NCBI GenBank assembly: GCA_035524955.1
Contig: DATLFG010000042.1
Span: 45,791 to 109,790, forward strand
Direction of reading: 5' to 3'
DNA length: 64,000 nt
From: Candidatus Limnocylindria bacterium
GTDB lineage: Bacteria; Methylomirabilota; Methylomirabilia; Rokubacteriales; CSP1-6
The translations under genes were made by a program, and so were the position numbers. The notes under the pieces were generated by a model. That model was not told the DNA's origin and made no database searches. It saw nothing but the letters and a program-made list of their open reading frames with translations. Positions 10,534 through 34,068 of this stretch are shown here, piece after piece (position 1 is the first letter of the stretch; every line of letters starts with the position of its first letter).

Positions 10534-10782
10534 CTACCCCTGCGGCCAGAGGCGGGAGCGCCGCAGCAGCCCGACCAGCACGAGCAGCATGCACGCGGCG
10601 GGATAGACCGCCGCGCCGCGCGGCCCGGCGTGCGCGACCAGGTAGCCGATCAGCAGGGCGCCGACGGGCGCCCCACCCATCAGACCGAGCTGGAAGAGCG
10701 AGAGGATCCGTGCGCGGTGCGTCTCCGGCGCGGCCAACTGCACCAGCGTCCGGGCCTGCGTCATGACCACGCCCGCCCCCAC
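10534..10782 (-). pseudogene. C-terminal fragment of an MFS transporter
   Basis: 82-aa ORF 'ILSLFQLGLMGGAPVGALLIGYLVAHAG' resembles the last two helices of MFS exporters. It abuts the OsmC stop with no room for the rest of an MFS gene. Confidence 0.35.
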
Positions 10783-10788
10783 GCCGGC

Positions 10789-11211: not shown

Positions 11212-11292
11212 GCGAACCTCCTCTGGATCGTGTGCGCGGGCCTGATTATAAAAGAGCGCCCGCCAGCACGGGGTTTGATATCAAGGAAGGGT

Positions 11293-13218
11293 ATGTCCAC
11301 CGTCCTGGCCAAGCCCCCGACCGCCGAGCCGAAGGCGGCCCCATCCGCGGCCGAGATGGGCGCCCGCCAGCGGGAGATCTCGGTCTCCGAGTTCTTCACC
11401 AAGAACCGCCACCTGCTCGGCTTCGACAATCCGCGCAAGGCCCTCCTCACCTGCGTCAAGGAGGCGGTGGACAACGCGCTCGACGCCGCCGAGGAGGCCG
11501 GCATCCTGCCCGAGGTCGTCGTCACGCTCGAGGTCGCGGCAAACGGCGAGGCGGCAGCGCCGGCCAGCCAGGCGACCCGCTTCCGGGTCACGGTGATCGA
11601 CAACGGTCCCGGCATCGTCCGCCAGCAGATCCCGCCCATCTTCGCCAAGCTCCTCTACGGCTCGAAGTTCCACCGGCTGCGCATGAGCCGCGGCCAGCAG
11701 GGCATCGGCATCTCCGCGGCGGGCATGTACGCCCAGCTCACGACCGGCAAGCCGGTGCAGATCACCTCGAGCACCGGGGCGCGGGCCGCGACGCACTACT
11801 TCGAAGTCCAGATCGACACCAAGAAGAACGAGCCGAGGATCTTCGAGAGCAAGAAGATCGACTGGGACCACCCGCGGGGCACGCAGGTGACGCTCGAGAT
11901 CGAGGGACGCTACCAGAAAGGCCGCGCCTCGGTGGACGAGTTCCTCGAGCAGGTGGCCATCGCCAATCCGCACGTGAGGCTCGTCTACCATGCGCCGGAG
12001 GGGGAGACCCGGCACTACCCGCGGACGATCCAGGAGCTGCCGCCGCAGCCCCGGGAGATCAAGCCGCATCCCTACGGCATCGAGTTCGGCGTGCTCCTCC
12101 GGATGCTCCACGACACCCGGAGCCACTCGCTCTCGGGCTTCCTCGCCGGCGACTTCAGCCGAGTCTCCCCGGCCGTCGCGGTGGAGATCTGCAAGACGGC
12201 CAAGCTCTCGGCGGACGCGCGGCCGCGCAACGTCCACGGCGACGCCGCCGAGGCACTCTACAAGGCCATTCAGGCGACCCGCATCATGGCGCCGCCCTCG
12301 AACTGCATCTCGCCCATCGGCGAGAAGGCGATCCTCCACGGCCTCTACAAGCAGATCAAGGGCGAATTCTACACCGCGGTGACCCGGCCCGCGGCCGTGT
12401 ACCGGGGCAACCCGTTCATCATCGAAGCGGGCCTGGCGTACGGGAAGGGTCCGGACCAGGTGGCGGTCACCCCGGACGCGGCCGCGGTCCCGCTCGCGGA
12501 AGGCGAGCAGCGGGAGGACGACAACGAGCTGGCCCGGGTCATTCGGTACGCCAATCGCGTCCCCCTGCTCTACCAGCAGTCGGCCTGCGCGACCTTCAAG
12601 GCGGTGCTCGAGACCGCCTGGCGCAACTACGGGGTGGCCCAGTCCCGGGGCGCGCTCCCGGCCGGCCCCATGGTGGTGTTCGTCCACATGGGCTCGGTCT
12701 GGGTGCCGTTCACCAGCGAGTCCAAGGAAGCGATCGCCGACTACGACGAGATCCGGAAGGAGATCAAGCTCGCGCTGCAGGAGTGCGGGCGCCGACTCGG
12801 CATGTTCCTGCGGCGGCGCGAGCGGGCCAAGAGCGAGTTTCGCCGGCGCAACATCTTCGAGCTGTACATCGAGGAGGTCGTCGAGGCCTGCGGCCGGCTG
12901 AAGGGCGGTAAGCTGGCCAAGGAGAAGCTCAAGGCCCAGCTCCAGAAGATCGCCCTGAAGCGCACCGGCGGTCCCCGGACCGACGCGATCCTGGGTCACG
13001 AGGGCGGTCCGGAAGGCCTCCCCCACTCGATCATCGTCACCGCCGACGGGCCGGAAGGGGAGGCGCCGGCATTGCCCGGCGCCGAGGGGAGCGCTGTTGC
13101 GCCGCCCGAAGAGGCCCGGCCGGAGAAGACCAAGCCCGCGCCCGCGCGACGGAAGGGCAAGGGCAAGGCCAAGGCGGCAAAGCCCAAGACCAAGGCGCCA
13201 AAGCGCAGGAAGAGGTAG
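11293..13218 (+). CDS. top6B: DNA topoisomerase VI subunit B (GHKL ATPase)
   Basis: 'FFTKNRHLLGFDNPRKALLTCVKEAVDNALDA' Bergerat ATP-binding fold, 'TVIDNGPGI', 'GQQGIGISAA'. Directly followed by top6A. Start ATG at 11293 with an AAGGAAGG RBS. Lys/Arg-rich C-terminal tail. Confidence 0.85.
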   Translation: MSTVLAKPPTAEPKAAPSAAEMGARQREISVSEFFTKNRHLLGFDNPRKALLTCVKEAVDNALDAAEEAGILPEVVVTLEVAANGEAAAPASQATRFRVTVIDNGPGIVRQQIPPIFAKLLYGSKFHRLRMSRGQQGIGISAAGMYAQLTTGKPVQITSSTGARAATHYFEVQIDTKKNEPRIFESKKIDWDHPRGTQVTLEIEGRYQKGRASVDEFLEQVAIANPHVRLVYHAPEGETRHYPRTIQELPPQPREIKPHPYGIEFGVLLRMLHDTRSHSLSGFLAGDFSRVSPAVAVEICKTAKLSADARPRNVHGDAAEALYKAIQATRIMAPPSNCISPIGEKAILHGLYKQIKGEFYTAVTRPAAVYRGNPFIIEAGLAYGKGPDQVAVTPDAAAVPLAEGEQREDDNELARVIRYANRVPLLYQQSACATFKAVLETAWRNYGVAQSRGALPAGPMVVFVHMGSVWVPFTSESKEAIADYDEIRKEIKLALQECGRRLGMFLRRRERAKSEFRRRNIFELYIEEVVEACGRLKGGKLAKEKLKAQLQKIALKRTGGPRTDAILGHEGGPEGLPHSIIVTADGPEGEAPALPGAEGSAVAPPEEARPEKTKPAPARRKGKGKAKAAKPKTKAPKRRKR

Positions 13219-13224
13219 CAACCC

Positions 13225-14331
13225 ATGGCGCGCGCAAAGGCGAAGAAGATCGGAGCCGTCGAGAAGAAGCTCATCAGCGTGGCGGACGCGGTGATCACCG
13301 CCGCCGATCGCAGCAAGGACCCCATGCTGTCGATCCCCGTGCGCAGCCTCGCCAACGTCAACTTCAACGAGAAGCGCGGCATCATCGAGATGGGCAAGCG
13401 CAAGCAGGAGCGCACGTTCTTCAACGTGAGCATGGCGAAGAAGTTCATGCAGACGGTGCTGGTGGCCGACGCCCTGTCCGAGCTGCAGCGGGCCGACCTC
13501 ACGACGTCGCTGCGCGAGATCTACTACCGCACCAAGCACACCATGAAGGACTCGAACGAGAACACGTTCGACAACCAGAACGAATCCGACCCGCTGATCG
13601 AGGACCTCGAGGTCTCGCTGGCCGCGCTGCGCGAAGAGCTCCACGTGCGTGCCGAGAACGCGGGCAGCATCGTGGGGCCCGTCGTCTTCGGCGACGACGG
13701 CGACCGGGTGGACTGCGCGCGCCTCGGCAAGGGCGGTTACTCGGTCCCGTCCATCGTCGAGCCCGACTTCATCGAGATCCGCCGCTGCACCGCCGACTTC
13801 GTCCTGCTCGTCGAGAAGGGCACCCAGTGGAACCGCCTCTCGGAGGATAAGTTCTGGCGCCGGTACAACTGCGTGCTGCTCACCGGGAACGGTCAGCCGC
13901 CCCGCGGAGTCCGGCGCCTGGCGCGCCGCCTGCACGAGGAATACAAGATCCCGGTGTACGTCCTCGTGGACAACGACCCCTGGGGCTACTACATCTACTC
14001 GGTCGTCAAGCAGGGCTCGATCAACCTCGCGTTCGAGAGCGAGCGGATGGCCATCCCCAAGGCCAAGTTCATCGGCCTCTCGAGCGCCGACCCCGACCGC
14101 TACGGCCTCCCCCGCAACGTGGGCATCAAGCTCAACGACAAGGACATCAGCCGCGCCAAGGAGCTGCTCAAGTACCGCTGGCTTCAGAAGAAGCCCTGGC
14201 AGGAAGAGATCAAGCGGATGCTCGCGAGCGGCCTCAAATATGAGCTCGACGCGCTCGCCAACAAGGACTTCCGCTACCTGACCAAGACCTACCTGCCGCG
14301 GAAGCTCAAAGAGGAAGACTGGCTGGACTAG
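13225..14331 (+). CDS. top6A: DNA topoisomerase VI subunit A (Spo11-like, 5Y-CAP + Toprim)
   Basis: Catalytic Tyr motif 'SLREIYYRT'. Toprim 'FVLLVEKGTQWNRL...CVLLTGNGQPPRGVRRLARRL...VYVLVDNDPWGYYIYS'. Confidence 0.9.
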   Translation: MARAKAKKIGAVEKKLISVADAVITAADRSKDPMLSIPVRSLANVNFNEKRGIIEMGKRKQERTFFNVSMAKKFMQTVLVADALSELQRADLTTSLREIYYRTKHTMKDSNENTFDNQNESDPLIEDLEVSLAALREELHVRAENAGSIVGPVVFGDDGDRVDCARLGKGGYSVPSIVEPDFIEIRRCTADFVLLVEKGTQWNRLSEDKFWRRYNCVLLTGNGQPPRGVRRLARRLHEEYKIPVYVLVDNDPWGYYIYSVVKQGSINLAFESERMAIPKAKFIGLSSADPDRYGLPRNVGIKLNDKDISRAKELLKYRWLQKKPWQEEIKRMLASGLKYELDALANKDFRYLTKTYLPRKLKEEDWLD

Positions 14332-14360
14332 CGCTCGGCCCCGCATGCCCCCGTCCACCA
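14232..14360 (+). repeat. Direct repeat copy 1: 3' end of top6A plus ~30 nt downstream
   Basis: About 90% identical over ~130 nt to 23643-23772, including the stop codon. Both copies share 'gagctcgacgcgctcgccaac.aggacttccgc.acctgaccaagacctacctgccgcggaagctcaa.ga.ga.gactggctggactagcgctc.gccccgcat.cccccgt'. Confidence 0.7.
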
Positions 14361-15025
14361 TCAGCGTGGTCGCAGTGACGAAGCGCGACGACCCGGATCC
14401 GGCGCCGCGCCGCCTCCCGGGCGACTGTGCGCATGAGTCCGACCTGGGCGTGCTTGGCCGTCACGTAGGCGACCGAGCCCGGCGCGCCCATGGCCCCGAC
14501 GACGCTGGAGGTGATGATGACGCTGCCGCCATCGTTCATGCGCGGGAGCCCGTACTTGCAGGCGAGGAAGGCCCTGCGCACGTGCACGGCGAGAAGCGCG
14601 TCGAAGGCGTCCTCGGGATACTCGGTCACGGGGACCACCGGGCCCTGGTTGCCGGCGTTGCTGAAGGACACATCGAGCGGGCCGAAGCGCGCGACGGTCC
14701 GCTCGATGTAGCCACGCGCCCCCGTCGCCTGGCTGACGTCCGCGGCGACGGCGTCGACGTGCGGGCTGGCGAGGTCGGCGACCGTGCGCGCGAGCGCGGC
14801 GCCGTCGAGGAATAACGTCGGCTTCAGTTCACGGACCAGAACCGGCCACCGACATCGCTTCTTCCCGCTGACTCGTGCGCCGGCCTTCAGCTCGTCAGCG
14901 TGAAGCGAGCGGTACTCGCGAGGGCTGGCCCCCGGAAGCGCACGGCGCGGCGGGCCCGCCGGCCGCCGGCGGGGGCCCTGCGGGCGATCACCGGCCCGAG
15001 AGCAGACCCCACTCCTGGGCTCTGA
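14306..15025 (-). pseudogene. SDR-family gene fragment lacking the N-terminal Rossmann motif and the normal C-terminus
   Basis: The minus-frame reading 'ALARTVADLASPHVDAVAADVSQATGARGYIERTVARFGPLDVSFSNAGNQGP...GGSVIITSSVVGAMGAPGSVAYVTAKHAQVGLMRTVAREAARRRIRV' is collinear with the intact SDR at 8683-9573. The TGxxxGxG N-terminus is absent and the C-terminus diverges and overlaps the top6A stop. Confidence 0.5.
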
Positions 15026-15100
15026 TCACCGCCTTGACCCGCGTATCCACCCCCAGGGCGTCGAAGATGGCCTTCAGGTGGGCCTTGGCCGTCCGCTCGC
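14988..15100 (-). pseudogene. Fragment of a LuxR-type HTH (C-terminal half only)
   Basis: 'AEIAEGPGISERTAKAHLKAIFDALGVDTRVKAVIRAQEWGLL' matches the second half of the LuxR/GerE HTH. No receiver or sensor domain lies upstream. Confidence 0.35.
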
Positions 15101-15198
15101 TGATCCCCGGGCCCTCGGCAATCTCGGCGTGCGCTCCGGGAACTCCTCGGCGACCACGGTGAGGTGGCGCCGGCGGCCCCACCGATGCCGAGGGCCAG

Positions 15199-15813
15199 AT
15201 GCCCGGCATGCGGCCGATCACCAAGCGGCTGGTTCACGGCCGGGACCACGGGGTGGCCCTCCTGGCCGAGGGTCTCCTCGTGGATCCGGGAGACCCCGGC
15301 GAGAAGCTCGACCCGCAGACGCTGGGGTCGGTGGAGCGCGACGCCTACGGAAACGTGCGCCCGGAAGAGCTGGAGCTGGCGCGGCTGCTCAAGACGCGGG
15401 TGGCGGCGAGCCTGGCGGCGCGGGGTATCGGGACCGGCATCGTGGCCAAGGATCTCGGCTACGAGCTCCGCTGCGCCCCGCCGGGTGGGTTCGACATCCA
15501 GTACTGCCGGAGCCTCGGCTACTGGGCCACACGCTTCCTGCTCGACGGCGGCACCGAAGCGCTGGCGACGATCCAGGGCGGCCGGCTGGTTCCGATCCCG
15601 TTCGGGGATCCACTCGACCCGACGACGGGCAAGATTCGCTTTCGCTACGCGGACATCCACTCGGAGGCGTACCGGACGCTCCACGCTTACATGATCCGCC
15701 TCAAACGTGAGGACTTCGAGCGGCCCGAGCAGCGGGAGGCTCTCGCTCGGGCCGCCAAGCTGAGCGAGCCGGAGTTCGTCCACCGTTTCGGATACGTCGC
15801 CGGCTACGGCTGA
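15199..15813 (+). pseudogene. 3' fragment of a pyrophosphate/ATP-dependent 6-phosphofructokinase gene
   Basis: 204 aa: 'IVAKDLGYELRCAPPGGFDIQYCRSLGYWATRFLLDGGTEALATIQGGRLVPIPFGDPLDPTTGKIRFRYADIHSEAYRTLHAYMIRLKREDF' resembles the C-terminal ~200 aa of PFK (group III/PPi type). The N-terminal ~150-200 aa are absent upstream. Confidence 0.5.
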
Positions 15814-16117
15814 GGAGAATGCCCGAGCGAGCATGCGCCACAGAACCGCGACGGTCCGGATGGCAACCACAAGCTACCCACGGGTGGCTCGGATGAACAA
15901 CCTCCTGACACTTCACACCCCAGTCGCCTCAGCAGGTTGATCACGTACCGGGCGGCGTTGGATCAACCGCCCGCTCCCAGCTTGTCTCGAGCCTGGCATC
16001 CGCATCCGCCCTCGGCTTAGAAGTGCACCTCAGGGACCTGCGACGAATTCAGACCAAGTTCCAGTGATACATAGTCGTTGATTACGAGGCAACCGGCGAC
16101 CCGCCGCGCTTCGATGC

Positions 16118-16792
16118 CTAACGGGCTTCTACCAAGGCGCTCAACTCGGCACTCGATCCAGGCAGCAGCTCCGAGGCGGGGGCCAGATAGACGCTGCCGG
16201 GGCGAGTGTTGCGGGTGATCAGCGCACCTGCGCCAACAATGCAGCCGGCAGCGACCGTCACACCCGCCCTCACCGTGGCGTTGGCGCCGATGATGCAGTA
16301 GGGCTCAACGGTAGAATCCCCCAAGACCACACTATGCGGCCCCAGAAAGCAGTGATCCTGGATTTCCGTATGGTGACCCACAACACTTCCGGTCTCGATC
16401 ATCACGTTGCTTCCGATACGCGCGAATGGCTTTATCACCACGTTCTCGTAAACAAAACAGTTCTCCCCGACCACCGCTTCCGGCCATGTCACGGCCCGGG
16501 AGCTCACGTAGCTCACGAGTCGGTAGCCTTTAGCCTGCGCCTGCTGAAACTTCTCCGCACGCAGTTGGTTGACTCTCTTCAGACCGATGGGAACCGCCAT
16601 CAGATACTCCTCCGGCGGATATTGTTGAGCGATCTCTTCAAACGGAACCACGGGACAGCCCTGCAACTCAGGCTGCCTTATGTACGCCCGGTCCACGGTA
16701 AACGCAGCGACTTCGTGGGGTGAATCGTGACTCAGGTAGAAGTGATTCATCTCCGCGAAAGGCTCGTTGCCGAAAATCACAACCTTGCTCAT
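16118..16792 (-). CDS. Hexapeptide-repeat acyltransferase, NeuD/PglD-like sugar N/O-acyltransferase family
   Basis: 224 aa. N-terminal alpha/beta domain followed by a left-handed beta-helix with hexapeptide repeats '(I/V)G.N..I...' such as 'IGSNVMIETGSVVGHHTEI', 'LGDSTVEPYCIIGANATV', 'GCIVGAGALI'. The start ATG overlaps the NRPS stop (ATGA). Confidence 0.7.
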   Translation of the reverse strand: MSKVVIFGNEPFAEMNHFYLSHDSPHEVAAFTVDRAYIRQPELQGCPVVPFEEIAQQYPPEEYLMAVPIGLKRVNQLRAEKFQQAQAKGYRLVSYVSSRAVTWPEAVVGENCFVYENVVIKPFARIGSNVMIETGSVVGHHTEIQDHCFLGPHSVVLGDSTVEPYCIIGANATVRAGVTVAAGCIVGAGALITRNTRPGSVYLAPASELLPGSSAELSALVEAR

Positions 16793-19700
16793 TCCCGAGC
16801 CCCCTCGTTGTCAGCCGCCAGCAAGAATGCCGCCAGCTTGTCGACGGTAGAATAGCGAAATAGATCCGCGATTGCGACCGGCCGGTCTACGAGCGGGCTG
16901 ATACGCCGGTGCAACTGTATGGTTAGCAAAGAGTGTCCGCCGAGGTCGAAAAAATCGTCGTGAACGTCGACCCGGGGAACACCCAATACTTCCTGCCAGA
17001 TCGAAACGAGTTGCTGCTCCAGACCGCCAAGGCGCTCGGACGGAACGGCCCCCAGCTCAACGACTGGGACCGGAGTCGCGCCCGGCGGTGGAAGCGCTTT
17101 GCGGTCGATCTTCAAGTTGGGCGTTAGCGGGAATTCGCGGATTTCGACGAAGTGCGACGGCACCATGATCTCGGGCAGCTTTGCGCGAAGATGGTCGCGC
17201 AGCTCTATCACCGGGACACCGGCGGATCCGTTAGGCGTCACATACGCGACCAGGCGCTTGTCCCCGGGAGTATCTTCACGCGCCAGCACCACGGACTTGC
17301 CGACACCAGGGTGCCCGTCGAGCAGGGCTTCGATCTCGCCGAGCTCGATGCGATAGCCGCGCAGCTTCACCTGGCCGTCGCTCCGGCCCAGAAATTCGAC
17401 ATTGCCGTCGGAGCGATAGCTCGCCACGTCACCGGTCCGGTAGAGGCGTCCGTCAGAACCGCCGAATGGGTCGCTCACAAACCGGTCGGCGGTCAGATCG
17501 GGCCGCTTCCAATATCCGCGAGCAACCCCCTTCCCGCCGATGTACAAGTCACCCGCCGTGCCGATGGGTACCAACTGCATGCGGTGGTCAAGGATGTACA
17601 TAGCGGTGTTGGCGATCGGCCGTCCGATGGGAATCGTGGTCTCGTTGCCGGTAACCGTATAGGTGGACGACCAGACCGTGGTTTCCGTGGGGCCATACAT
17701 GTTGATCAGCTTCCCGAGTACAAGCTCTCCCAGATCCTGGGCCTGTGTTGCGGGAAGCGCCTCGCCCCCCACCATCATCACCCTCAAGCCGCGCAGGGCC
17801 AGACGCGACTCCCGATCGGCGGTCAACAGACCGGCCATTGACGGGGTGCACTGCAGATGCGTCACCTTGTGGCGGGCGATCAGGGCCGGGATGGCCGACT
17901 GCCCCGCCGTTTGCACCGGAACGTCAGCGGCGAGCCTCCGCAAGCGATTCAGATGCTCCAGATGCTGAAACGCGGTTGAGGAGGCAACCCCGAAGTCGAT
18001 CAGGCAGGCAAGCTCATCGATGCCGATTCCCTTCAATCGATGAACCATCGCGAGGCAGGTCTCGACCGTCCCGAATAGTCCGCTCGTCTCGAAGTACCGA
18101 TCGAAGGCGTGGTTCAGGATGCCAGACTTCTCCTCTGGCGTGAGGCTCTGTGCAGCAAACATCTGGCTGAGGGTTTGCCCCGTTGCAGAGGCGCGCTCCT
18201 TGAACGCCGGGAACGACCAGGCGGCCTGCTCGGTCAGATCCAGCGCGCTGGCCAGGTAGTCAATCATCGGCTCACGCACGACTTCGCGCACCTGACCATC
18301 ATCGTCGCCGACGAAGGTATGCAGCATCAGCGTCACGTAGCCATCGCCCGGATGCCCGTGTTCCCGCCACGCTTTACGGTAGATGGAGAGCTTCTCGGCC
18401 AGTTGCTCCACACCTTGCCCCAACAGGTGGGTGAGAATCCGGAAGCCTCCGGTGCCCGCCCTGCGAAACGTCTCCGGGTTTCCCGCCACTGTGACCCAGA
18501 CCGGCAACTCGGCTTGAACGGGCCGAGGCAGGGTCCGCACTTCAACCTCTTTGTGGTCGGGGCCGGGAAAGCGGATCGTTTCCCCCCGCCACAGCCGGCG
18601 GACAGTCTCGATACCGCGAAACATCGTATCCTGCCGGTTGGCGTACTGCTCCGGTTGCAGCACGAAGTCGTTCGGCTGCCAGCCGGAGGCAAACGAGATC
18701 CCGACGCGGCCACCGGAAATGTTGTCTACGACCGACCATTCCTCGGCGATCCGGATGGGGCTGTGCAAGGGAGATACGCAGCTACCCGCGCGGAGGCCGA
18801 TCGATTTCGTGATCGACGCCAGAGCGGCGCTGGTGACAGACGGATTGGGATACAATCCGCCAAACGCACCGAAGTGCCGTTCCGGTGTCCATACCGCGGC
18901 GAAGCCATTCTGGTCGGCGAACTTGGCCCCTTCGAGCAGGAGAGCGTACTTATTGGCGGCGTTCTCTCCTTCGTCGCTGGCGAAATAGAACAGGCTGAAG
19001 TCGATGCCGGCCGCTCGAGTTCCCCTCTCCGTGCCACCGTGGAGGATTACCTTGAACCCACGCGCCATGGTCCAAAACAACTCCAGCACCGAGATGTCGA
19101 AGGAGAGGCTGGTCACCGCCAGCCAGGTCCCCGGTGGACTGTGCGGAATACAATCATCCATTCCCGCGAAGAGGTTCGTGACGTTGCGGTGCTCGACCAT
19201 CACACCCTTGGGCCTGCCGGTGGACCCCGACGTATAAATGACATAGATCAAGTTACTGCCAGTCACGCCGCTGTCCAGATTGTCCTCGGGTTCCCGTTCG
19301 ATGCTCCCCCAGTCAGTGTCGATGCAGACGATCTTCGCGCGATGAGGAGGCAGCCGGTGGAGCAGACCTTGTTGCGTCAGTAGAATCGCGCACCGGGCGT
19401 CTTCGACCATCAACGCCAGCCGGTCCGCGGGATAGGCGGGATCGAGCGGAACATACGCCGCGCCGGCTTTGAGAATCCCGTAGACGCCCGTCAGCAGATC
19501 GATCGAGCGTTCCACGCAAATACCGACGAGCACTTCAGGTCCTGCGCTCAAGTTCCGCAGGTGTCGGGCCAGTTGGTTGGCCGCGCGATTCAGCTCGTCG
19601 TAGGTCCGCCGTTGGTCTCCACAGACCAGGGCTACCGCGTGCGGGGTCCGCTTCACCTGTTGCTCGAAGAGTTCGTGAACGCTCGCGTCGACCGGATACG

Positions 19701-21351
19701 CCTTGTGAGTGGCATTCCACGTTACCAGGAGCCGTTCGCGTTCAGCGTCCGTGAGGATGGGGACGCCCGCTAGAGGCGCGTCGAGATGTGCCGCCAGGTG
19801 CTGCAGGAATGCCGTGAAGGCGCGCTGGAGTTCGAGAATATGAGCCTGGCCGAAGACCGAGGTCCGATAGGTCCAATGACTCGTGCATCCGTCGCGCGAC
19901 ACAGCGATCGTCAGGTCGTTATCCGCGGCGTTCTCTGGTTCGTCCCGTTGAAGGATCCCGATCGGCAGCCGCATGGCCCGGCCGGCCAGTTCCGGAGTGC
20001 GAGCTACCAGGGAACGCGCATACGTCTGATTGGCTCGGGCGCTCTCCAGGTCGTTCAGCACGGCACGCAGTGCAGCGTCCACGCTGGCGTCACCGTCCAA
20101 TGTGACGCGCACCGGGACCTGAAGAGCGAAGAATTGCTCAAGACCCGACAGCGACTCCTCCAAGCCGACGTGTCCGAAGCCGATATCAAAGGAAGTGTGT
20201 CCTGTGGTCCGCGCCAGGTACAGAATCAACGCTGCTGTCAGGACATCCACGGGTTCGCCCGCCGCGGTGGGGACCGGCGGGACGGAGAGGGCCGCCGTCC
20301 CACGAGACTCCACTCCTTGCGTGCTCGCGCCCCGGCCCTCGGAGGGAAGTTCCAGGGGTGCAAGCTGCAGGAGGCGCTGCAGCCAGAATTCCTCGTGCCG
20401 GACGATACTCTGACCTAGCTGCGTGAGAGTTACTGCGGTACCCGCTGGGAGCGCCTCGAAGCGGTAGCCGGCAGTAATCCCAGCCGTGGCGACGTCCAAC
20501 GCCTCTCCACCGATGTCGAGCAACTGAGAAACTACAACTTGATTGGTCGACGTGGCCACACGAACGGAATTACCGTCGACAGATAGCACCGTACCCGGCG
20601 GGCTCTCAGAGAATGCCGGCAGCACCTCCAGCTTCGGCACGAGAAGCACGGTTTCGCCGCTGATCACCTTTGGAATCTCGAGGGGATTCGGATAAGGGCG
20701 GAAGTCGAGGGAACGCACAAAGGCGGCTATTGTTTCGGCGGGCAGGCTCCAGTCGATGCAAGCCTGGGCCGCGGGCCGCGCGTGCTTCGCAAAATACGTT
20801 CGCTCGGAAAGGCTCTGCGGGAGGGCTCGAAGCGTCCCATCGCCCAAGGCTTTGATCAGCTCCTCAAAGGAATCGATTCCGGCCTTGAAGCATTTGCGAT
20901 TCAGCGTAAACGCCGTTTCATCGGGAGCGAGCGCAAAGAAACGCTGCTGGAAAATGTCGCCTGTATCCACGATCTCTCGCATCTCGTGCCAAGTGACGCC
21001 GTGGGACGTCTCCTGATTGAGGATGGCCCACGTGGTGGCGTGCAAACCGGCGTATCTCGGCAACGGACCATCGTGAAAATTAATGGCGCCAAAACGAGGC
21101 AGCGCCAAGATCCGAGCCGGAACGAGGGATAGGTTGGCAATACTGAACAGGTAATCGAAGGGCCGACCATCCATCGAAGAGAGAACTTCGTCCTGGCGGG
21201 AGACACAACGGATCTTCTGTTCTTGGGCCCATTCTTGGATCACATCGTTGGCGGACACGATGATCTCTATCTTGTGCTTGTAGCGAAGAAGAATCTCCGC
21301 GCAGGGGATCAGAAGAGCTCCCTCCCCCAGAATGAGCGTGCTGAATGTCAT
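16789..21351 (-). CDS. Single-module non-ribosomal peptide synthetase: formyltransferase domain, partial (C-terminal) condensation domain, adenylation domain with inserted luciferase-like monooxygenase domain, thiolation domain
   Basis: aa ~1-290 resemble Fmt N- and C-domains ('HDGPLPRYAGLHATTWAI'). aa ~290-560 resemble the post-C3 half of a C domain ('EFWLQRLLQLAPLELPSEG', 'LTDAERERLLVTWN') with no HHxxxDG. A domain motifs: A1 'TYDELNRAANQLA', A2 'LKAGAAYVPLDP', A3 'YTSGSTGRPKG', A4 'SFDIS', then a ~340-aa LLM domain ('IDFSLFYF...ALLLEGAKFADQNGFAAVWTPERHF...SGGRVGISFASGW'), then A5 'NMYGPTETT', A7 'YRTGD', A8 'GRSDGQVKLRGYRIELGEIE', A10 'PNLKIDRKAL'. PCP 'FFDLGGHSLL'. There is no TE, R or C-terminal C domain. 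Confidence 0.9.
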   Translation of the reverse strand: MTFSTLILGEGALLIPCAEILLRYKHKIEIIVSANDVIQEWAQEQKIRCVSRQDEVLSSMDGRPFDYLFSIANLSLVPARILALPRFGAINFHDGPLPRYAGLHATTWAILNQETSHGVTWHEMREIVDTGDIFQQRFFALAPDETAFTLNRKCFKAGIDSFEELIKALGDGTLRALPQSLSERTYFAKHARPAAQACIDWSLPAETIAAFVRSLDFRPYPNPLEIPKVISGETVLLVPKLEVLPAFSESPPGTVLSVDGNSVRVATSTNQVVVSQLLDIGGEALDVATAGITAGYRFEALPAGTAVTLTQLGQSIVRHEEFWLQRLLQLAPLELPSEGRGASTQGVESRGTAALSVPPVPTAAGEPVDVLTAALILYLARTTGHTSFDIGFGHVGLEESLSGLEQFFALQVPVRVTLDGDASVDAALRAVLNDLESARANQTYARSLVARTPELAGRAMRLPIGILQRDEPENAADNDLTIAVSRDGCTSHWTYRTSVFGQAHILELQRAFTAFLQHLAAHLDAPLAGVPILTDAERERLLVTWNATHKAYPVDASVHELFEQQVKRTPHAVALVCGDQRRTYDELNRAANQLARHLRNLSAGPEVLVGICVERSIDLLTGVYGILKAGAAYVPLDPAYPADRLALMVEDARCAILLTQQGLLHRLPPHRAKIVCIDTDWGSIEREPEDNLDSGVTGSNLIYVIYTSGSTGRPKGVMVEHRNVTNLFAGMDDCIPHSPPGTWLAVTSLSFDISVLELFWTMARGFKVILHGGTERGTRAAGIDFSLFYFASDEGENAANKYALLLEGAKFADQNGFAAVWTPERHFGAFGGLYPNPSVTSAALASITKSIGLRAGSCVSPLHSPIRIAEEWSVVDNISGGRVGISFASGWQPNDFVLQPEQYANRQDTMFRGIETVRRLWRGETIRFPGPDHKEVEVRTLPRPVQAELPVWVTVAGNPETFRRAGTGGFRILTHLLGQGVEQLAEKLSIYRKAWREHGHPGDGYVTLMLHTFVGDDDGQVREVVREPMIDYLASALDLTEQAAWSFPAFKERASATGQTLSQMFAAQSLTPEEKSGILNHAFDRYFETSGLFGTVETCLAMVHRLKGIGIDELACLIDFGVASSTAFQHLEHLNRLRRLAADVPVQTAGQSAIPALIARHKVTHLQCTPSMAGLLTADRESRLALRGLRVMMVGGEALPATQAQDLGELVLGKLINMYGPTETTVWSSTYTVTGNETTIPIGRPIANTAMYILDHRMQLVPIGTAGDLYIGGKGVARGYWKRPDLTADRFVSDPFGGSDGRLYRTGDVASYRSDGNVEFLGRSDGQVKLRGYRIELGEIEALLDGHPGVGKSVVLAREDTPGDKRLVAYVTPNGSAGVPVIELRDHLRAKLPEIMVPSHFVEIREFPLTPNLKIDRKALPPPGATPVPVVELGAVPSERLGGLEQQLVSIWQEVLGVPRVDVHDDFFDLGGHSLLTIQLHRRISPLVDRPVAIADLFRYSTVDKLAAFLLAADNEGARE

Positions 21352-21878
21352 AGGATTGCCGCCTTGACCACTGCCAGGATCACCAAGATGCTAGCCGGGA
21401 TGTACTGGCCACCACCCCGGCACCCCTGCTGGCATAGACCTCGAGGCCGCCGTGCGTGATGTGCGAGCCACGGGCCGGCTCCAGTGCCTGGCGTGATCAG
21501 CGTGGCGGTGATGCCCTGAAGGGGGCTGATAGTGCTACGGATAGATCTGGCTACCACGATGAACCGGGCACGCACAGACACCCTCCAGCGAAGGCCCTAC
21601 TGCCTCTCCTCAGAGGGCGTGGAGCGCGAGTATAAGCGGAGCGGGCGGGAGGAGCAAGGGCTGAACCGGCAACAGCGGCTTTTCAAGACGGCGGGCGTCT
21701 GATCCGACATGCCCGGTCCTTCACCCTGCAGGTGGCCGAAAGCCAGCTGGCGCTGACTCTCTTTCAACAGATCATCGGGCGCCTCGAACGACTCGCATGG
21801 GATCCGACGTGACCGAGCGGACTGTCCAGACGGGGAGCAGGTGCGGCGCCGGCGGGAGTGCCAGCACGGCGGGCGCAG
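21352..21878 (-). promoter_or_regulatory. Long (~525 nt) non-coding leader/promoter region upstream of the NRPS gene
   Basis: No convincing ORF between the NRPS start (21351) and the upstream acetyltransferase stop (21879). Only short off-frame ORFs are present. Confidence 0.25.
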
Positions 21879-22505
21879 TTAAGGCCGGGTTTGGGAAGGA
21901 ATCGGCCGTGCCGGCACACCGACGACCGTCGTGGCTGGCTCGACATTCTTGGTAACCACGGCACCCGCGCCCACAACCGCCCAATCGCCGACATGTAACC
22001 CGGGAAGCACGATGCTCCCGAGCGCAAGGAAGACGCCTTCACCGATCGACGCGCCACCGCCGAGGTGCGCAACAGCGATATGGGCATAGTCGCCGACGTG
22101 GCAGTGATGGTCGACGCTCGCTTTGGTGTTCAAGATGACGTGAGCACCGATGCAGGCGCCGGCTTGGACGATGCCGCCGGCAAACACGACGCTGCCAGGG
22201 CCTAGGGTCACATCCGGATGGACCGAAGAGAATGGATGCACCGCGGTTGTCCACTCGATCTCGATCTCGTGGCTGATGCGTTTGCGCACGTGATTGTCAC
22301 CGACGCCGATGATGGCGCGCGTGCAGGTGGAATCACGCACAGCCGCGATCGGCCCGCGGATGGGAACGCCCAAGACGTTGTTTCCCCAATTCTTGGGCGA
22401 GTCATCGAAGAGTGCGACGACCTTCCGGCCCATCGCATGCAGAGTGGCGACGACCACCGCCGCGTGCCCCCCTGCGCCAAGAACCGCGATGCGCTCGTCA
22501 GCCAC
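21879..22505 (-). CDS. PglD/NeuD-family hexapeptide sugar N-acetyltransferase-like protein
   Basis: 208 aa. N-terminal 'IAVLGAGGHAAVVVATL' Rossmann-like domain typical of PglD/NeuD, then hexapeptide beta-helix 'IGAHVILNTKASVDHHCHVGDYAHIAVAHLGGGASIGEGVFLALGSIVLPGLHVGDWAVVGAGAVV'. Confidence 0.7.
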   Translation of the reverse strand: MADERIAVLGAGGHAAVVVATLHAMGRKVVALFDDSPKNWGNNVLGVPIRGPIAAVRDSTCTRAIIGVGDNHVRKRISHEIEIEWTTAVHPFSSVHPDVTLGPGSVVFAGGIVQAGACIGAHVILNTKASVDHHCHVGDYAHIAVAHLGGGASIGEGVFLALGSIVLPGLHVGDWAVVGAGAVVTKNVEPATTVVGVPARPIPSQTRP

Positions 22506-22748: not shown

Positions 22749-23564
22749 ATGCGGTATGCTTCACTACCTATCGACGAAGTTCATCTCTGGTGCGCGCACC
22801 CCAGTGAGCTCAACCGCGACGACGTTTACGACGTCGCTCGACATATGATCACTTCAGAAGAGGCTCAGCGGCTGGAGCGCTTCTGCTTCGCTCGGGACCG
22901 ACAGACTTATCTGGCAACTCGTGTTCTCGTCCGTACGGTACTTTCCCGGTACGAGCCACTGGCGCCGGCTGCTTGGCGATTCATCGTCGGACAGTACGGC
23001 CGCCCAGAGATCGTACACGATCAACCAGCGCTCCATTTTAATCTCTCTCACACCAATGGGCTTGTCGTCTGTGCCGTCGCCCGAGATCTTGATGTCGGAG
23101 TCGATGTCGAACACATCGGCCGCCCAGCGCCTCTTGAGGTCGTCGATCATTTTTTCGCGCCCACGGAGATCGCGGCCTTGCGCGCGCTACCGGACGCTGA
23201 GCAGCAGCGCCGATTCTTCGATTACTGGACACTCAAAGAAAGTTACATCAAGGCTCGGGGCTTGAGCCTAGCGCTGCCCGTCGATCGCTTTGCCTTCACG
23301 CTCTCGGCGGACGGCAAAGCGAACCTCAGAATAGATCCCGCGCTTGGGGAAGGTGCACCATGGCAATTTACTCGGCATTGGCCAACCTCCGAACACATAG
23401 TTTCCGTGTGCGTGACACGTCGCCGCGACGAGGACGCGAAGATCATCCTCGGATGGCACTCGTTGGCCAGATCAATCGCGGACAGCGGCCACGAGGGCGC
23501 AACCCATTTCACAAGCTGGTCGAGGCCGCCGAACAAGGTCTCGATCTCCGATGCGGTATTGTAG
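22749..23564 (+). CDS. Sfp-type 4'-phosphopantetheinyl transferase
   Basis: 'FNLSHTNG', 'VGVDVE', 'FFDYWTLKESYIKARG' are the signature motifs of Sfp/EntD-type PPTases. Divergent from the upstream acetyltransferase gene. Confidence 0.8.
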   Translation: MRYASLPIDEVHLWCAHPSELNRDDVYDVARHMITSEEAQRLERFCFARDRQTYLATRVLVRTVLSRYEPLAPAAWRFIVGQYGRPEIVHDQPALHFNLSHTNGLVVCAVARDLDVGVDVEHIGRPAPLEVVDHFFAPTEIAALRALPDAEQQRRFFDYWTLKESYIKARGLSLALPVDRFAFTLSADGKANLRIDPALGEGAPWQFTRHWPTSEHIVSVCVTRRRDEDAKIILGWHSLARSIADSGHEGATHFTSWSRPPNKVSISDAVL

Positions 23565-23783: not shown

Positions 23784-24560
23784 TCAAGGCCGCACGGCGG
23801 GCGAGTCGATGGTCATCCCTCTCGCTCGCCACATCAGGAACACCTCGAGGTCCACGAACTCGCGACCCCCATACTCGTACGGCTCCGCCCGCATCCCGAC
23901 CATGCAGTTGCGTAACCGCCGCTGGAGCGAGCCCAGCCCCTGCCACTCCAGCCGGTAGAGCGGATACCCCGTCGGGTGCCCCTGCGGGATCACGTTCCCG
24001 GCGAGCCGCCGCCCCCAGTGGTCGTCATGACACTGACTGCACGCCAGATTGAGCTGCCCCTGCCGCCGATAGAACGTAGCGCGTCCGGCATCGACGAACG
24101 CCTGCATCCGCGGGTCGACGACCCGGTTGATCGGCATCCCGCGCGACTGCCGCGCGACGAAGGCGGCCAACGCCAGCAGATCGCGACCCTCCCAGGCCAG
24201 CCGCGGCGCCTGCTGCCGGTCGACCCGGCAGCGGTTGATCCGCTGCTCGAGGTTGACCGGCCGTCCCATCCCCGCGTCGAACGCCGGATGCCGCGCCGCC
24301 ACGCCCTTCATGCTGGTCCGAGCATCGCCATGGCAGTCCGCGCAGGCCCGTCCCGCCGCCCCGACCTTCCGCCCCCACAGCGACTCGCCCTCGAGCACCC
24401 AGAGCATCCCGGGATTCGCGGTGTCGTCGTCCTGCATCGCCCGCGTCTCCCGGCTCATGAAGTCGTACCCCGCCCGGCGCTCGCCCAGGGGGATCTCGCC
24501 GGCCGGGGCCGACGCCGCTACCACCACGATACCGAACAGCGCGGCCCCCACGAGCCGCAC
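23784..24560 (-). CDS. soxA: Diheme cytochrome c SoxA (thiosulfate oxidation)
   Basis: Signal peptide, two CxxCH motifs ('CADCH', 'CSQCH'), ~258 aa. Adjacent to the soxZ, soxY and soxX homologues. Confidence 0.7.
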   Translation of the reverse strand: MRLVGAALFGIVVVAASAPAGEIPLGERRAGYDFMSRETRAMQDDDTANPGMLWVLEGESLWGRKVGAAGRACADCHGDARTSMKGVAARHPAFDAGMGRPVNLEQRINRCRVDRQQAPRLAWEGRDLLALAAFVARQSRGMPINRVVDPRMQAFVDAGRATFYRRQGQLNLACSQCHDDHWGRRLAGNVIPQGHPTGYPLYRLEWQGLGSLQRRLRNCMVGMRAEPYEYGGREFVDLEVFLMWRARGMTIDSPAVRP

Positions 24561-24564
24561 GCGG

Positions 24565-24909
24565 CTAGCTGACCGTGATGGCCGCCGACTCCGTCACCGA
24601 GAAGCCGTTGTCGCCGGTCCAGGTGAAGGTCAGTGTGCCGCTCTCGGTGGCGACGGTCGAGAACACGAGGAACGGATTGGCGGCGATCGCCGGATGCAGG
24701 TCGGCGCGAAAGACCTCGGCGCCGTTGTAGGTGCAGACGAACTGCCGGATGATGTCGCGGGCGATCGGCGCGCCGGCCTCGGTGCGGCGGTGACCGGTCT
24801 CCATGACGTGGGAGATCAGCGTCTTGATCTCGATGATCTCGCCGCGCCTGGCCTGGCCCGGGACGTTGATCAGCGCGCGCGCCACGGCTAGAGGGGCCCT
24901 TCCAGGCAC
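24565..24909 (-). CDS. soxZ: Thiosulfate oxidation carrier complex protein SoxZ
   Basis: 114 aa with a SoxZ-like beta-sandwich sequence ('IIEIKTLISHVMETG', 'FTWTGDNG'). Overlaps the soxY-like gene by ~20 nt. Confidence 0.7.
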   Translation of the reverse strand: MPGRAPLAVARALINVPGQARRGEIIEIKTLISHVMETGHRRTEAGAPIARDIIRQFVCTYNGAEVFRADLHPAIAANPFLVFSTVATESGTLTFTWTGDNGFSVTESAAITVS

Positions 24910-25352
24910 GCGGCCAGGGTGACCACGACGGTGGCGCGATCCGACCAGAACGAGCCGTCGCTCAGCTCGCCGATGGCGACGACGGTCTGCGTGTTGGCGA
25001 GCCGGACGCGGGTCGACACGCGCGCCCGGCCGGAGCGGGGGCTGAAGCGGAACGTGGCGACGTCGGGCAGCGGGTTGATCTCGGTGAAGACGTGGACGGC
25101 CCGGACGTGGTCGGCCTCGGTCATCGGGCTCTCGACGCTGACCGTCAGCGGGACGGCGTGGCCGTTCTCGGACAGCGGGGGCAGCTCGAGCTTCACCCGG
25201 CCCGGCGTGACGGGGGCGGAGCCCACCACCCGGCGGATGGCGGCCTGCATCCGCTCGGGGGTCGCCCCGGTGGGGCGAACGGCGACGATCGACACCAGGC
25301 CGAGCCCGGCGCCGGCGGTCCGGAGGAACGCGCGGCGGTCCATGTCTGTCAC
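24888..25352 (-). CDS. soxY: Thiosulfate oxidation carrier protein SoxY
   Basis: Tat signal 'RRAFLRTAGAGLGL', ~154 aa with a C-terminal Cys-containing tail ('VTLAACLEGPL'). Position between soxX and soxZ. Confidence 0.65.
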   Translation of the reverse strand: MTDMDRRAFLRTAGAGLGLVSIVAVRPTGATPERMQAAIRRVVGSAPVTPGRVKLELPPLSENGHAVPLTVSVESPMTEADHVRAVHVFTEINPLPDVATFRFSPRSGRARVSTRVRLANTQTVVAIGELSDGSFWSDRATVVVTLAACLEGPL

Positions 25353-25816
25353 TCTCGCAGCGTCGTCAAGAAGGCGACCACGTCCTCGATCTGCTCGGCG
25401 GTCAGCACGGGCTTGCCGCGGAACGCGGGGGCGACCCGTGTCAGGCCGTCGGTCCGATGATACGCCGGCATGATCGTCGCCGGGTTGACCCGGGCGGGAT
25501 CGACGATCCGCTGGCGGATCTGCGCCTCGGACAGCCGGCTGCCGACGCCGGCCAGGTTGGTGGCCAGCTCACCCTGGAAGCGTTCCTCCGGGAACGGCCC
25601 GCTGTGGCAGAGCAGGCAGAGTCCGACCTGGCGGTCGGCGACGATCGCCCGGCCGCGCGCCGGATCGCCTGGGGCGCCGGTGAGCGACTCCGGGATCCCG
25701 TCCCGTCCGTGCGCCACACCGGCCACCAGGCAGCTCATCGCGACGAGGGCGGCGGCGGCCGCGCGCCGTGGGGTTGGCGCCGCCCGGCCCGGCCCGGTCC
25801 GCCCGTCTCTCACCAT
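25349..25816 (-). CDS. soxX: Monoheme cytochrome c SoxX
   Basis: Single 'CLLCH' heme motif and a hydrophobic N-terminus ('MSCLVAGVAHG'). The listed ORF (to 25954) has a GC-rich, Arg-rich N-terminal extension that is probably not translated. Confidence 0.55.
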   Translation of the reverse strand: MVRDGRTGPGRAAPTPRRAAAAALVAMSCLVAGVAHGRDGIPESLTGAPGDPARGRAIVADRQVGLCLLCHSGPFPEERFQGELATNLAGVGSRLSEAQIRQRIVDPARVNPATIMPAYHRTDGLTRVAPAFRGKPVLTAEQIEDVVAFLTTLRE

Positions 25817-25823
25817 GGGTGAC

Positions 25824-27098
25824 CTACCCGAACACCTCGGCGGTGATGGTCCGGAACCAGGCCTCGGCCAGCACCGCCTCCGCCGCGCGCGTCTCGCGCG
25901 GCGCGCCGGCCGGGCTGACGCCGCCGGCGCCCTTGACCTCGGCCAGCTGCCCACCCGACGGCTCGTAGACGCCGGCCACCGAGATGCCGTAGTCGGGCGC
26001 GATCAGGCTGTAGCACGTGTTGATGAGCTTGGGGTCGGACGGGGCGGCGCCGGTGAGGAGCCGGGCGACCACCACGGCGCACGTCTTGGCCTGGGAGTTG
26101 GCGGCGAAGGCCGACTTCGGCATGGCGCCGGCGATGGCGGCGTCGCCGATGACGTGGATGCGGGGCTCGAGCCTCGACTCGAACGTCACCGGATCGATCG
26201 GGCACCAGCCGCTGCGGTCGGCGACGCCCGCGACCTCCGCGATGCGGCCGGCCTTCTGCGGCGGGATGACGTTGGCCACGTCGGCCTTGTGGCGGCCGAA
26301 ATCGGTGACGAACGTGCGGGTCGTGGGGTCCACCGCGGTGACGGCGCCTCCCCGGGAGACCGGGACCCACTCGAGCAGGCCGGGGTACAGCTCCGCCCAG
26401 GCCTGCTGGAACAACCGCTGCTTGGAGAACACGTCCTTGGCGTCGAGCACGATCAGCTTGGAGCGCGGCTTCCTGGTCTTGAGGAAGTGCGCGATCAGAC
26501 TGGCGCGCTCGTAGGGGCCGGGCGGGCAGCGGAACGGGTTGGCGGGCGCCGAGATGACGACCACCCCGCCGTCCGGCATGGCCTCGAGCTGGCGGCGCAG
26601 CCGCAGCGTCTGCTCACCCGCGCGCCAGGCGTGGGGCATGCTCGCGGACGCCGCCTCGTCGTAGCCGGGTAGCGCGCCCCACCTGATGTCGATGCCGGGC
26701 GCCATCACCAGCCGGTCGTACGGCAAGCGCGCGCCGTCGGCGAGCGTGACCGACCGCGCGGCCGCGTCGACGGCCGTGGCGCTCGTGCCGGCGAGCGTGA
26801 TGCCCGCGGCCGCGACGTGCTCGTAGGTGAACTGCTGGGCGCTCAGCTCGCGCAGGCCGGCGACCACGTTGTTGCTGAACGGGCAGGCGGTGAACGTCGG
26901 GTTCGGCTCCACCAGCGTGACCGCGATGGCCGGATCGATCGTCCGGAGCGCGCGGGCGCAGCTGGCGCCCGCGAAGCCACCACCGATCACCACCACCTTC
27001 GGCGCGGCGCCGCGCGCGAACACGGGATACGGACACAGCGCGGTCGAAGCCGCGGCCGCGGCGCCGAGCTTCAGGAACTCCCGGCGGCCCGGGCTCAC
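25824..27098 (-). CDS. Flavocytochrome c sulfide dehydrogenase flavoprotein subunit (FccB/SoxF-like FAD oxidoreductase)
   Basis: Tat signal 'RREFLKLGAAAAAS', FAD Rossmann 'KVVVIGGGFAGASCA', ~420 aa. The GTG start at 27098 overlaps the stop of the upstream cytochrome subunit gene. Confidence 0.75.
   Translation of the reverse strand: MSPGRREFLKLGAAAAASTALCPYPVFARGAAPKVVVIGGGFAGASCARALRTIDPAIAVTLVEPNPTFTACPFSNNVVAGLRELSAQQFTYEHVAAAGITLAGTSATAVDAAARSVTLADGARLPYDRLVMAPGIDIRWGALPGYDEAASASMPHAWRAGEQTLRLRRQLEAMPDGGVVVISAPANPFRCPPGPYERASLIAHFLKTRKPRSKLIVLDAKDVFSKQRLFQQAWAELYPGLLEWVPVSRGGAVTAVDPTTRTFVTDFGRHKADVANVIPPQKAGRIAEVAGVADRSGWCPIDPVTFESRLEPRIHVIGDAAIAGAMPKSAFAANSQAKTCAVVVARLLTGAAPSDPKLINTCYSLIAPDYGISVAGVYEPSGGQLAEVKGAGGVSPAGAPRETRAAEAVLAEAWFRTITAEVFG

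Positions 27099-33992: not shown

Positions 33993-34068
<76 letters not shown>

Follow-up and report, generated by a model that had tools for sequence, protein, structure and literature searches.

The stretch of DNA analysed here, hereafter the window, comprises 64,000 nucleotides of contig DATLFG010000042.1 from a Candidatus Limnocylindria bacterium of the lineage Methylomirabilota, and at positions 16789..21351, on the minus strand, it carries an uninterrupted open reading frame (ORF) of 4.5 kb whose 1520-aa product resembles a single module of a nonribosomal peptide synthetase (NRPS). The protein begins with a formyltransferase (F) domain that has both an N and a C (OB-like) subdomain (aa 1-290; 20482..21351), matched by Pfam Formyl_trans_N at 51-157 (9.6e-14) and Formyl_trans_C at 195-287 and by sequences in the PDB. 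It continues with the C-terminal lobe of a condensation (C) domain from which the HHxxxDG half is missing (aa 291-545; 19717..20481), recognised through Pfam, AlphaFold, and Foldseek. The adenylation (A) domain that follows is divided into an N-terminal part containing motifs A1-A4 (aa 546-784; 19000..19716) and a C-terminal part containing motifs A5-A10 (aa 1139-1435; 17047..17937); Pfam AMP-binding covers it as two stretches (4.2e-83), the first at 562-776, and AMP-binding_C lies at 1339-1413. Between the two parts stands a luciferase-like monooxygenase (LLM), the MOx insert (aa 785-1138; 17938..18999), which scores 506 bits against NCBIfam TIGR04020, the MupA/Atu3671-type natural-product LLM family with a cut-off of 244, and which matches Pfam Bac_luciferase at 795-1112 (5.2e-44). 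A peptidyl carrier protein (PCP) domain closes the protein (aa 1436-1520 and the stop codon; 16789..17046; PP-binding at 1446-1510). Landmark motifs are FWLQRL at 322, TDAERERLLVTWN at 534, SFDIS at 750, NMYGPTETT at 1217, and GGHSL at 1471, and the LLM is placed between A4 (SFDIS) and A5 (NMYGPTETT).

An earlier note, made from the sequence alone, had read the same order of F, partial C, A(MOx), and terminal PCP, with both F subdomains within residues ~1-290, an LLM-like insert between A4 and A5, and the motifs just listed, and the analysis bears out each of these points, the matches being far stronger than chance would produce. It had also pointed to the lack of a release domain or downstream module, with which our searches agree. 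Pfam finds no thioesterase (TE), reductase (R), ketosynthase (KS), or second C domain in the 1520-aa protein, and a tblastn search of the 64 kb with A, LLM, and polyketide synthase (PKS) seeds yields no further match of the adenylation, LLM, or PKS type. The ~30 window ORFs scanned with Pfam contain no Condensation, TE, or R domain; no window-wide search was made for these domains.

The gene that follows offers a possible solution to the question of release, and it is one that the picture of an enzyme without an outlet had overlooked. LbH1 (16118..16792, minus strand) encodes a hexapeptide acyltransferase of 224 aa that scores 171 bits against TIGR03570, the NeuD/PglB/VioB family, above the cut-off of 160.8 bits, and its start codon overlaps the stop codon of the large gene in the sequence ATGA. 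A second NeuD/PglD-family acyltransferase of 208 aa, LbH2 (21879..22505, minus strand; TIGR03570 183 bits, again above the cut-off; Pfam PglD_N), lies upstream of the large gene. Beyond it, a divergent gene (22749..23564, plus strand; Pfam ACPS and AASDHPPT_N) encodes a 4'-phosphopantetheinyl transferase (PPTase) of the Sfp/HetI type. In comparison with four relatives of 72-89% identity, the whole large gene has a dN/dS of ~0.20, and the LLM insert, at 0.09-0.10, is its most constrained part. We conclude that the large gene is an intact, selectively maintained single-module NRPS-like gene, and we predict that its product is an active enzyme. A reading as a pseudogene was rejected, since dN/dS is ~0.2 against the relatives.

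How widespread is this arrangement? The Pfam string of the window protein recurs in more than 100 full-length proteins that are 1500-1600 residues long and range from 96% to 49% in identity; those with a named source come from Methylomirabilota, Acidobacteria, Chloroflexota, Burkholderiales, and Sandaracinaceae. In addition, 164 loci emerged when species-representative genomes and metagenomes were scanned, 83 of them complete in the sense that F, LLM, A, and PCP stand in one ORF, and the complete loci fall into two clean types. Type 1 consists of 18 loci, some of them near-identical: the window and its relatives of 72-100% identity, mostly from soil metagenomes. This clade probably belongs to the Methylomirabilota, the name that its named members carry. 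Type 1 loci contain no PKS, no glycosyltransferase (GT), and no basic C-terminal tail, and in every one of the 18 a 224-aa hexapeptide-repeat gene equivalent to LbH1 overlaps or abuts the stop codon of the large gene. This pairing is constant while the other neighbours vary. For example, LbH2 stands upstream of the large gene in the closest relatives only (L002, L093, L105, L145, and L149), and the PPTase, which also adjoins the cassette in L093, L105, L104, L107, L159, and L168, is a frequent but not universal companion.

Type 2, with 65 loci, is found in Rhodobacteraceae, Burkholderiales, Chloroflexota, Myxococcota, and others. Here the protein carries a 17-56-residue C-terminal extension that closes in a conserved basic stretch, DAMARRRAMRARR, and its gene adjoins one for a synthase of ~2150 aa with the domains KS, acyltransferase (AT), ketoreductase (KR), dehydratase (DH), acyl carrier protein (ACP), and TE, together with a family-2 GT (GT2); in Shimia (L015) the order is PKS, GT, NRPS, PPTase. 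By comparison, the window protein ends 49-50 residues past GGHS and has no docking tail. We note that the pattern R.DAM..RR.MRARR occurs in the tail of all PKS-linked relatives (L001, L005-L061, and others; for example, L015 at 16600-16829) and in none of the LbH-linked ones, and from its sequence it looks like a PKS docking element. We also note that in Piscinibacter gummiphilus (L001, 557-9766 and 21272-24683) the PKS-linked version lies within an exopolysaccharide region, with EpsI, Wzy_C, and beta-helix proteins upstream and a Zn-dependent alcohol dehydrogenase (Zn-ADH) and two GT2 genes downstream.

The pair of large gene and LbH1 recurs in two more distant loci, likewise of type 1. In L168, from an Acidobacteria metagenome-assembled genome (MAG) and 59% identical, it stands beside a PPTase and a GlmU-like gene. 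In L169, an unassigned Logan assembly contig with 55% identity, it lies inside a glycan locus, flanked by a PglF-like dehydratase, a FemAB-like gene, a Bac_transf priming transferase, a DegT aminotransferase, and a family-4 GT (GT4); judged by its genes, this is a bacillosamine-type pathway in which the large protein and LbH1 occupy the position of PglD. A third variant of the large protein consists of F, spacer, glycine-type A, and PCP and lacks the LLM. In Streptomyces and Kitasatospora (L064, L071, and L075) the next gene after such a protein has an SGGKDS motif and is OzmP-like, which is how the OzmO/PtxE loaders of formylglycine are arranged (PMC5764310). LLM-less variants also occur in a cyanobacterium (L065, 2307-5903) and a Cytophagia MAG (L066, 124-15768), where they are paired with LbH-type genes, so the LbH pairing is independent of the monooxygenase; L066 also holds DegT, dehydratase, Bac_transf, and PPTase genes.

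The F/half-C/A(MOx)/PCP family is large, widespread, automatically annotated, and biochemically unstudied. The earlier note had taken the protein for an orphan of undescribed architecture; the 83 complete loci show that it is no one-off, and they include the NRPS of a known Roseobacter cluster (PMC4337385). In the literature we found no description of a formyltransferase together with a MOx-interrupted A domain, no description of the product of the Roseobacter cluster, and no account of the PKS-less, LbH-coupled form, which is a distinct variant of the family.

What chemistry might the module perform? The F domain finds its best PDB sequence matches in ArnA and Fmt (E ~1e-22), which cover both subdomains, and the match to the F domain of LgrA is confined to aa 58-162 (2e-8). 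Residues N91, H93, and D129 align with the NxH...D residues of ArnA and do not vary among 11 homologues with identities as low as 51%, and the protein accordingly has the Fmt-like F domain, marked by N-x-H...D, of F-A-PCP initiation modules. The F domain is also 39-44% identical to those of OzmO/PtxE-type loaders from Streptomyces and Kitasatospora (L064, L071, and L075). Once the insert is spliced out, the A domain can be aligned over its whole length with A domains of solved structure, the best being that of LgrA module 2 (the second A domain). The segment FDISVLE (751-757) supplies specificity positions 235 (D), 236 (I), and 239 (L), and NMYGPTETTVW and NLKIDR supply the remaining pocket residues. 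The resulting pocket, D-I-L-Q-M-G-M-V-W-K, read by eye from the alignments, is conserved throughout the family. It resembles the glycine code DILQLGLIWK, and from this resemblance we infer that the A domain is of the glycine type. The complete A domain is joined to a PCP whose serine, S1474 of GGxS, is likewise invariant. MOx inserts in glycine-recruiting A domains carry out C-alpha hydroxylation (PMC11342130, PMC9396620).

The half C domain between F and A deserves separate mention. The motif HHxxxD occurs nowhere in the 1520-aa protein, and Pfam Condensation matches only aa 473-542, equivalent to profile positions 385-456 of 456, so the catalytic half is missing, as had been supposed. Sequence methods detect just the last 70-80 residues of the region. 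An AlphaFold model of aa 285-562, built on an alignment of 38 homologues, is confident (pLDDT 88, pTM 0.85), and its top Foldseek matches in the PDB are all NRPS condensation domains (Txo1, Txo2, DhbF, the RzmA starter C domain, and the LgrA C domain). Normalised to the query, the TM-score is 0.6-0.68; normalised to an isolated C domain, it is only ~0.40. The region therefore represents one lobe of the fold, the C-terminal one, together with the C-A linker. Its first segment is E..FW..RL..L.P.ELP, after core motif C4, and at ~40% of an isolated C domain the model has neither the two-lobed CAT-like fold nor the HHxxxDG motif of a condensation domain. The earlier description of this region as vestigial does not hold: it is predicted to fold, and its dN/dS of 0.28-0.32 against the same four relatives indicates purifying selection. 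Catalytically dead but structurally retained is the better description. We propose that it has no role in condensation and would serve as a folded spacer or platform between F and A.

The closest counterpart in the literature is the four-gene NRPS/PKS/GT/PPTase cluster of the Roseobacters, which is reported in 28 of 57 genomes and whose product is uncharacterized (PMC4337385, citing Martens et al.). Our type 2 loci match this conserved cluster. Its NRPS has the same full-length architecture (F, a spacer of ~250 aa, glycine-type A split by an LLM, and PCP) at 42-46% identity, and a PPTase belongs to the cluster, as in the window. The Roseobacter cluster differs in its basic tail, its KS-AT-KR-DH-ACP-TE synthase, and its GT2; the window contains none of these and has NeuD-family acyltransferases instead.

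The OzmO/PtxE/CongA formylglycine loaders of oxazole polyketides are similar in that they are separate polypeptides and combine a glycine-type A domain and a PCP with an Fmt-like F domain, which is 39-44% identical to that of the window protein, and their pathway is proposed to begin from formylglycine (PMC5764310). Their spacer is equal in length to the half C domain and shares its opening motif, E..W..RL..L.P..LP. BLASTP of the half C domain against the L064 spacer aligns the opening motif only (E 0.018), so that our suggestion of a half C domain in OzmO-type loaders is a tentative one. In contrast to the window protein, these loaders lack a MOx insert and feed a PKS, and an OzmP-type cyclodehydratase gene follows.

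Two further systems, MtaG/MelG and LgrA, had been named as analogies for the window protein. The MtaG and MelG proteins, of myxothiazol and melithiazol biosynthesis, are C-A(MOx)-PCP-TE modules in terminal position, where they convert peptidyl-glycine by cleavage into a terminal amide, and in MtaG the LLM likewise lies between A4 and A5. In common with the window protein, they have a TIGR04020-type LLM within a glycine-recruiting A domain, and the MOx performs C-alpha hydroxylation (PMC11342130, PMC9396620). MtaG-type modules contain a terminating TE, and the glyoxylyl residue is hydrolysed (PMC11342130). In contrast, the window protein has no working C domain, upstream chain, or TE, and the only N-acyl group available to it is formyl; with no HHxxxD and no TE, it has neither the upstream functional C domain nor the glyoxylate-clearing TE that characterise this module type. 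The F-A-PCP initiation module of LgrA (linear gramicidin), for which structures are solved, similarly has an F domain fused ahead of A-PCP, and differs in that its F domain has no C subdomain and in that there is no half C domain. LgrA loads valine and hands its product to a downstream C domain. An equivalent C or KS acceptor was found neither with the A, LLM, and PKS seeds in the 64 kb nor in the Pfam-scanned ORFs, and there is no docking tail. Both analogies are reasonable for the mechanisms of single domains, and the protein belongs to neither module type.

Finally, LbH1 and LbH2, which both pass TIGR03570, have their counterparts in the PerB/PglD/NeuD-family sugar N-acetyltransferases. The best PDB match of LbH1 is PerB (4ea7, a GDP-perosamine N-acetyltransferase; 6e-17), with which it aligns over LbH1 aa 29-201; the alignment includes a histidine opposite a PerB position that is occupied by His in 4ea7 and by Asn in the variant entry 4eaa. 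What would set LbH1 apart from these enzymes is a PCP-bound donor, which we propose from the gene coupling and from homologues that stand beside carrier proteins. LpxA and LpxD, LbH enzymes that move acyl groups from acyl-ACP donors onto UDP-sugars, provide a precedent for such a donor.

We propose that the module makes a modified glycyl thioester that is handed to its partner acyltransferase and not to a downstream module. First, the neighbouring Sfp-type PPTase would prime the PCP, and the A domain, as its pocket residues suggest, would activate glycine and load it. Second, the F domain, in which the catalytic residues are present, would N-formylate glycyl-S-PCP with N10-formyl-tetrahydrofolate in the manner of the OzmO/PtxE loaders. 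Third, the FMN-dependent MOx would hydroxylate C-alpha to give N-formyl-alpha-hydroxyglycyl-S-PCP, which may persist or may collapse to glyoxylyl-S-PCP and formamide. We speculate that the formyl group supplies the N-acyl group that MOx chemistry normally meets, in a loading module that has no peptidyl chain. Fourth, LbH1 would take the acyl group off the PCP and place it on an amine, most likely that of a nucleotide-activated 4-amino sugar made elsewhere in the genome. The product would decorate a glycan, and LbH1 would replace the missing TE or C domain, as the gene coupling and the contexts of relatives suggest. We assign the off-loading role to LbH1 because the two genes are coupled through ATGA, because they are paired in 18 of 18 clade loci, and because the protein ends right after the PCP where the 65 PKS/GT relatives have a 17-56-aa tail. 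We put the probability of the full model at about one half.

Several observations weigh against this proposal. In sequence, the F domain stands closer to the sugar formyltransferase ArnA than to its counterpart in LgrA, and glycine specificity comes from a pocket read by eye and not from a trained predictor. Formylation may come before or after hydroxylation, and the hydroxylated thioester may be unstable. To our knowledge, no NeuD-family enzyme uses a PCP-bound donor; the solved relatives of LbH1 carry acetyltransferase names, and the donor they are known to use is acetyl-CoA. As for the acceptor, the window's glycan genes, of which the nearest (a PglF-like dehydratase, Wzz, and Wza) are 11-15 kb away, all lie outside the low-GC segment that contains the cassette. 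Moreover, PglF, DegT, Bac_transf, FemAB, and GT4 seeds match nothing within 8-10 kb of the cassette in the window clade, which lowers our confidence in a sugar acceptor.

The alternative that survives best, which we nevertheless consider unlikely, is that LbH1 is a tailoring enzyme that uses acetyl-CoA, either for O-acylation of the alpha-hydroxyl or for acylation of the free product, and that the PCP is cleared by hydrolysis or fragmentation. The product would then be a small soluble N-formyl-alpha-hydroxyglycine derivative, or glyoxylate and formamide. This would agree with the acetyltransferase names of the solved relatives and with the source records, which name LbH1-family proteins as sialic acid O-acetyltransferase NeuD family. 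The window clade has no sugar genes beside the cassette (8-10 kb), and simple hydrolysis disposes of the glyoxylyl residue in MtaG-type modules (PMC11342130). However, the cassette contains no hydrolase or TE with which to clear the PCP, and the strict translational coupling of LbH1 to a gene that ends in a PCP suits a protein-protein hand-over. Furthermore, relatives of both LbH1 and the large protein occur in amino-sugar loci near carrier proteins.

We give little weight to a second alternative, in which the protein is a true initiation module, as the earlier note had implied, and serves in trans an NRPS or PKS whose gene lies elsewhere in the genome, the LbH proteins being unrelated or late tailoring enzymes. 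Most of the relative loci, 65 in number, do feed a one-module PKS, and the F-A-PCP proteins of the OzmO/PtxE type are separate polypeptides (PMC5764310). Yet the window clade has lost, or never had, the basic tail that is found in all PKS-linked relatives. A PKS occurs in none of the 18 complete clade loci, where the LbH1 pairing is invariant and other neighbours vary, and the A, LLM, and PKS seeds and the Pfam-scanned ORFs yielded no second match in the 64 kb and no C domain, respectively.

Less weight still falls to the idea that the F domain formylates a sugar amine, as ArnA does, and that the glycine, MOx, and PCP parts form a separate acyl-donor unit in the same protein. ArnA and sugar N-formyltransferases are indeed the best matches of F, over both subdomains and ahead of the weaker LgrA F, and the partner enzymes are of a sugar-acting type. 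On the other hand, F, a 250-aa spacer, glycine-type A, and PCP also occur together in the OzmO/PtxE type, whose pathway is proposed to start from formylglycine (PMC5764310) and whose F domains are 39-44% identical to this one, and F is fused to a carrier module in every relative. Lastly, it is hardly credible that the cassette is a decaying, functionless remnant of a horizontally acquired Roseobacter-type NRPS/PKS cluster: its low GC hints at foreign origin, fragments of two genes lie at its left edge, and the PKS and GT are missing, but the 4.5-kb ORF runs without a break, none of the catalytic motifs has been lost, and each domain has a dN/dS of ~0.2 against relatives that are 72-96% identical and come from many samples.

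Returning to the hand-over of a PCP-bound acyl group to LbH1, the loci of its homologues bear on what the acceptor might be. These homologues form a large family of 50-60% identity. Three of them (50-55% identity) were looked up, and all stand in glycan loci that combine, in varied ways, DegT aminotransferases, 4,6-dehydratase/epimerases, free-standing carrier proteins, and AMP-ligases with acyl-CoA-dehydrogenase-like and FemAB-like genes, Wzy or Wzx, and glycosyltransferases. This layout is as expected if an unusual acyl group were built on a carrier protein and then transferred onto an amino sugar. We tentatively suggest, as a possibility that falls well short of even odds, that NRPS chemistry has been recruited for glycan decoration, with a PglD-type transferase taking an N-formyl-alpha-hydroxyglycyl (or glyoxylyl) group from the PCP to a nucleotide amino sugar. 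We know of no description of either group as a sugar N-acyl substituent. We also note that a FemAB-like (Acetyltransf_6) gene recurs beside the LbH1 homologues (L165, 15031-15963; L166, 8039-8950; and L167, 5403-6320) and adjoins the cassette in L169 (13216-14277) and L123 (26-760); it may add another aminoacyl group.

The family is common in soil and marine bacteria and belongs to a cluster reported in about half of the sequenced Roseobacters, and we found no paper on its product or on the purpose of formylating and alpha-hydroxylating a single glycine. The existence of the individual domains will not surprise specialists. What the minimal cassette offers is a way to test the glycine chemistry, the Roseobacter product, and the PCP-to-sugar hand-over, since the window version is the smallest form (synthetase, coupled transferase, and PPTase) and the easiest to approach by in vitro chemistry. 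If LbH1 does take a PCP-bound donor, it would be a PCP-dependent NeuD-family enzyme and would represent a new route of off-loading through sugar-type hexapeptide transferases, one that links secondary-metabolite machinery to cell-surface glycans and gives the whole F-A(MOx)-PCP family, the orphan Roseobacter cluster included, its first functional handle. Even a negative outcome would leave the orphan picture corrected and two sub-families available for annotation, one with tail and PKS and one with LbH and no tail.

The cassette lies in a segment whose low GC content had been pointed out before and is real: GC is 0.618, as compared with 0.695 and 0.705 in the flanks, and GC at third codon positions is 0.71-0.74 as compared with 0.85-0.97. 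At the left edge of the segment (14306-15870) are fragments of two genes, the middle third of a short-chain dehydrogenase/reductase (14306-14671, minus strand) and the C-terminal half of a pyrophosphate-dependent phosphofructokinase (15199-15813, plus strand; profile positions 219-407 of 407), which may be the scar of a rearrangement. The low GC and third-position GC, the surroundings of the cassette, which differ among relatives, and these fragments fit horizontal acquisition. No convincing direct or inverted repeats flank the segment, only short matches at chance level; no tRNA gene stands beside it, and no integrase marking a mobile element was found. Between LbH2 and the large gene is a 527-bp spacer (21352..21878, assigned to no strand) without a family-matched ORF. 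Rfam reports no family, riboswitches included, in the low-GC segment or this spacer, and a promoter and terminator scan gave nothing above chance, with no promoter-like site beyond chance in the spacer.

Farther away, a polysaccharide operon (5-5438, minus strand) continues past the left edge of the window; it lies 11-15 kb from the cassette and could supply an amino-sugar acceptor. It encodes a Wza-like exporter (4221-5438), a Wzz/BY-kinase (1927-4224), and a PglF/CapD-like 4,6-dehydratase of 667 aa (5-2008), all on the minus strand. Other glycan-related genes of the window are RmlD (34360-35277) and a GT2 gene (51999-53054). Genes for topoisomerase VI subunits B (862 aa) and A (368 aa) stand side by side at 10630-14331 (plus strand) in what is seemingly a bacterial genome, and the A subunit gene adjoins the cassette in the relative L002 as well. 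Immediately to the right of the segment lies a sulfur-oxidation set (23784-27296, minus strand) comprising SoxA, SoxZ, SoxY, a cytochrome c, and the flavoprotein of a flavocytochrome c sulfide dehydrogenase. Finally, the window holds nine tRNA genes, at 33993-34292, 49343-49561, and 53833-54234 (minus strand), among them a Lys-Arg-His trio and two pairs of tRNA-Ser genes, all four of which differ.

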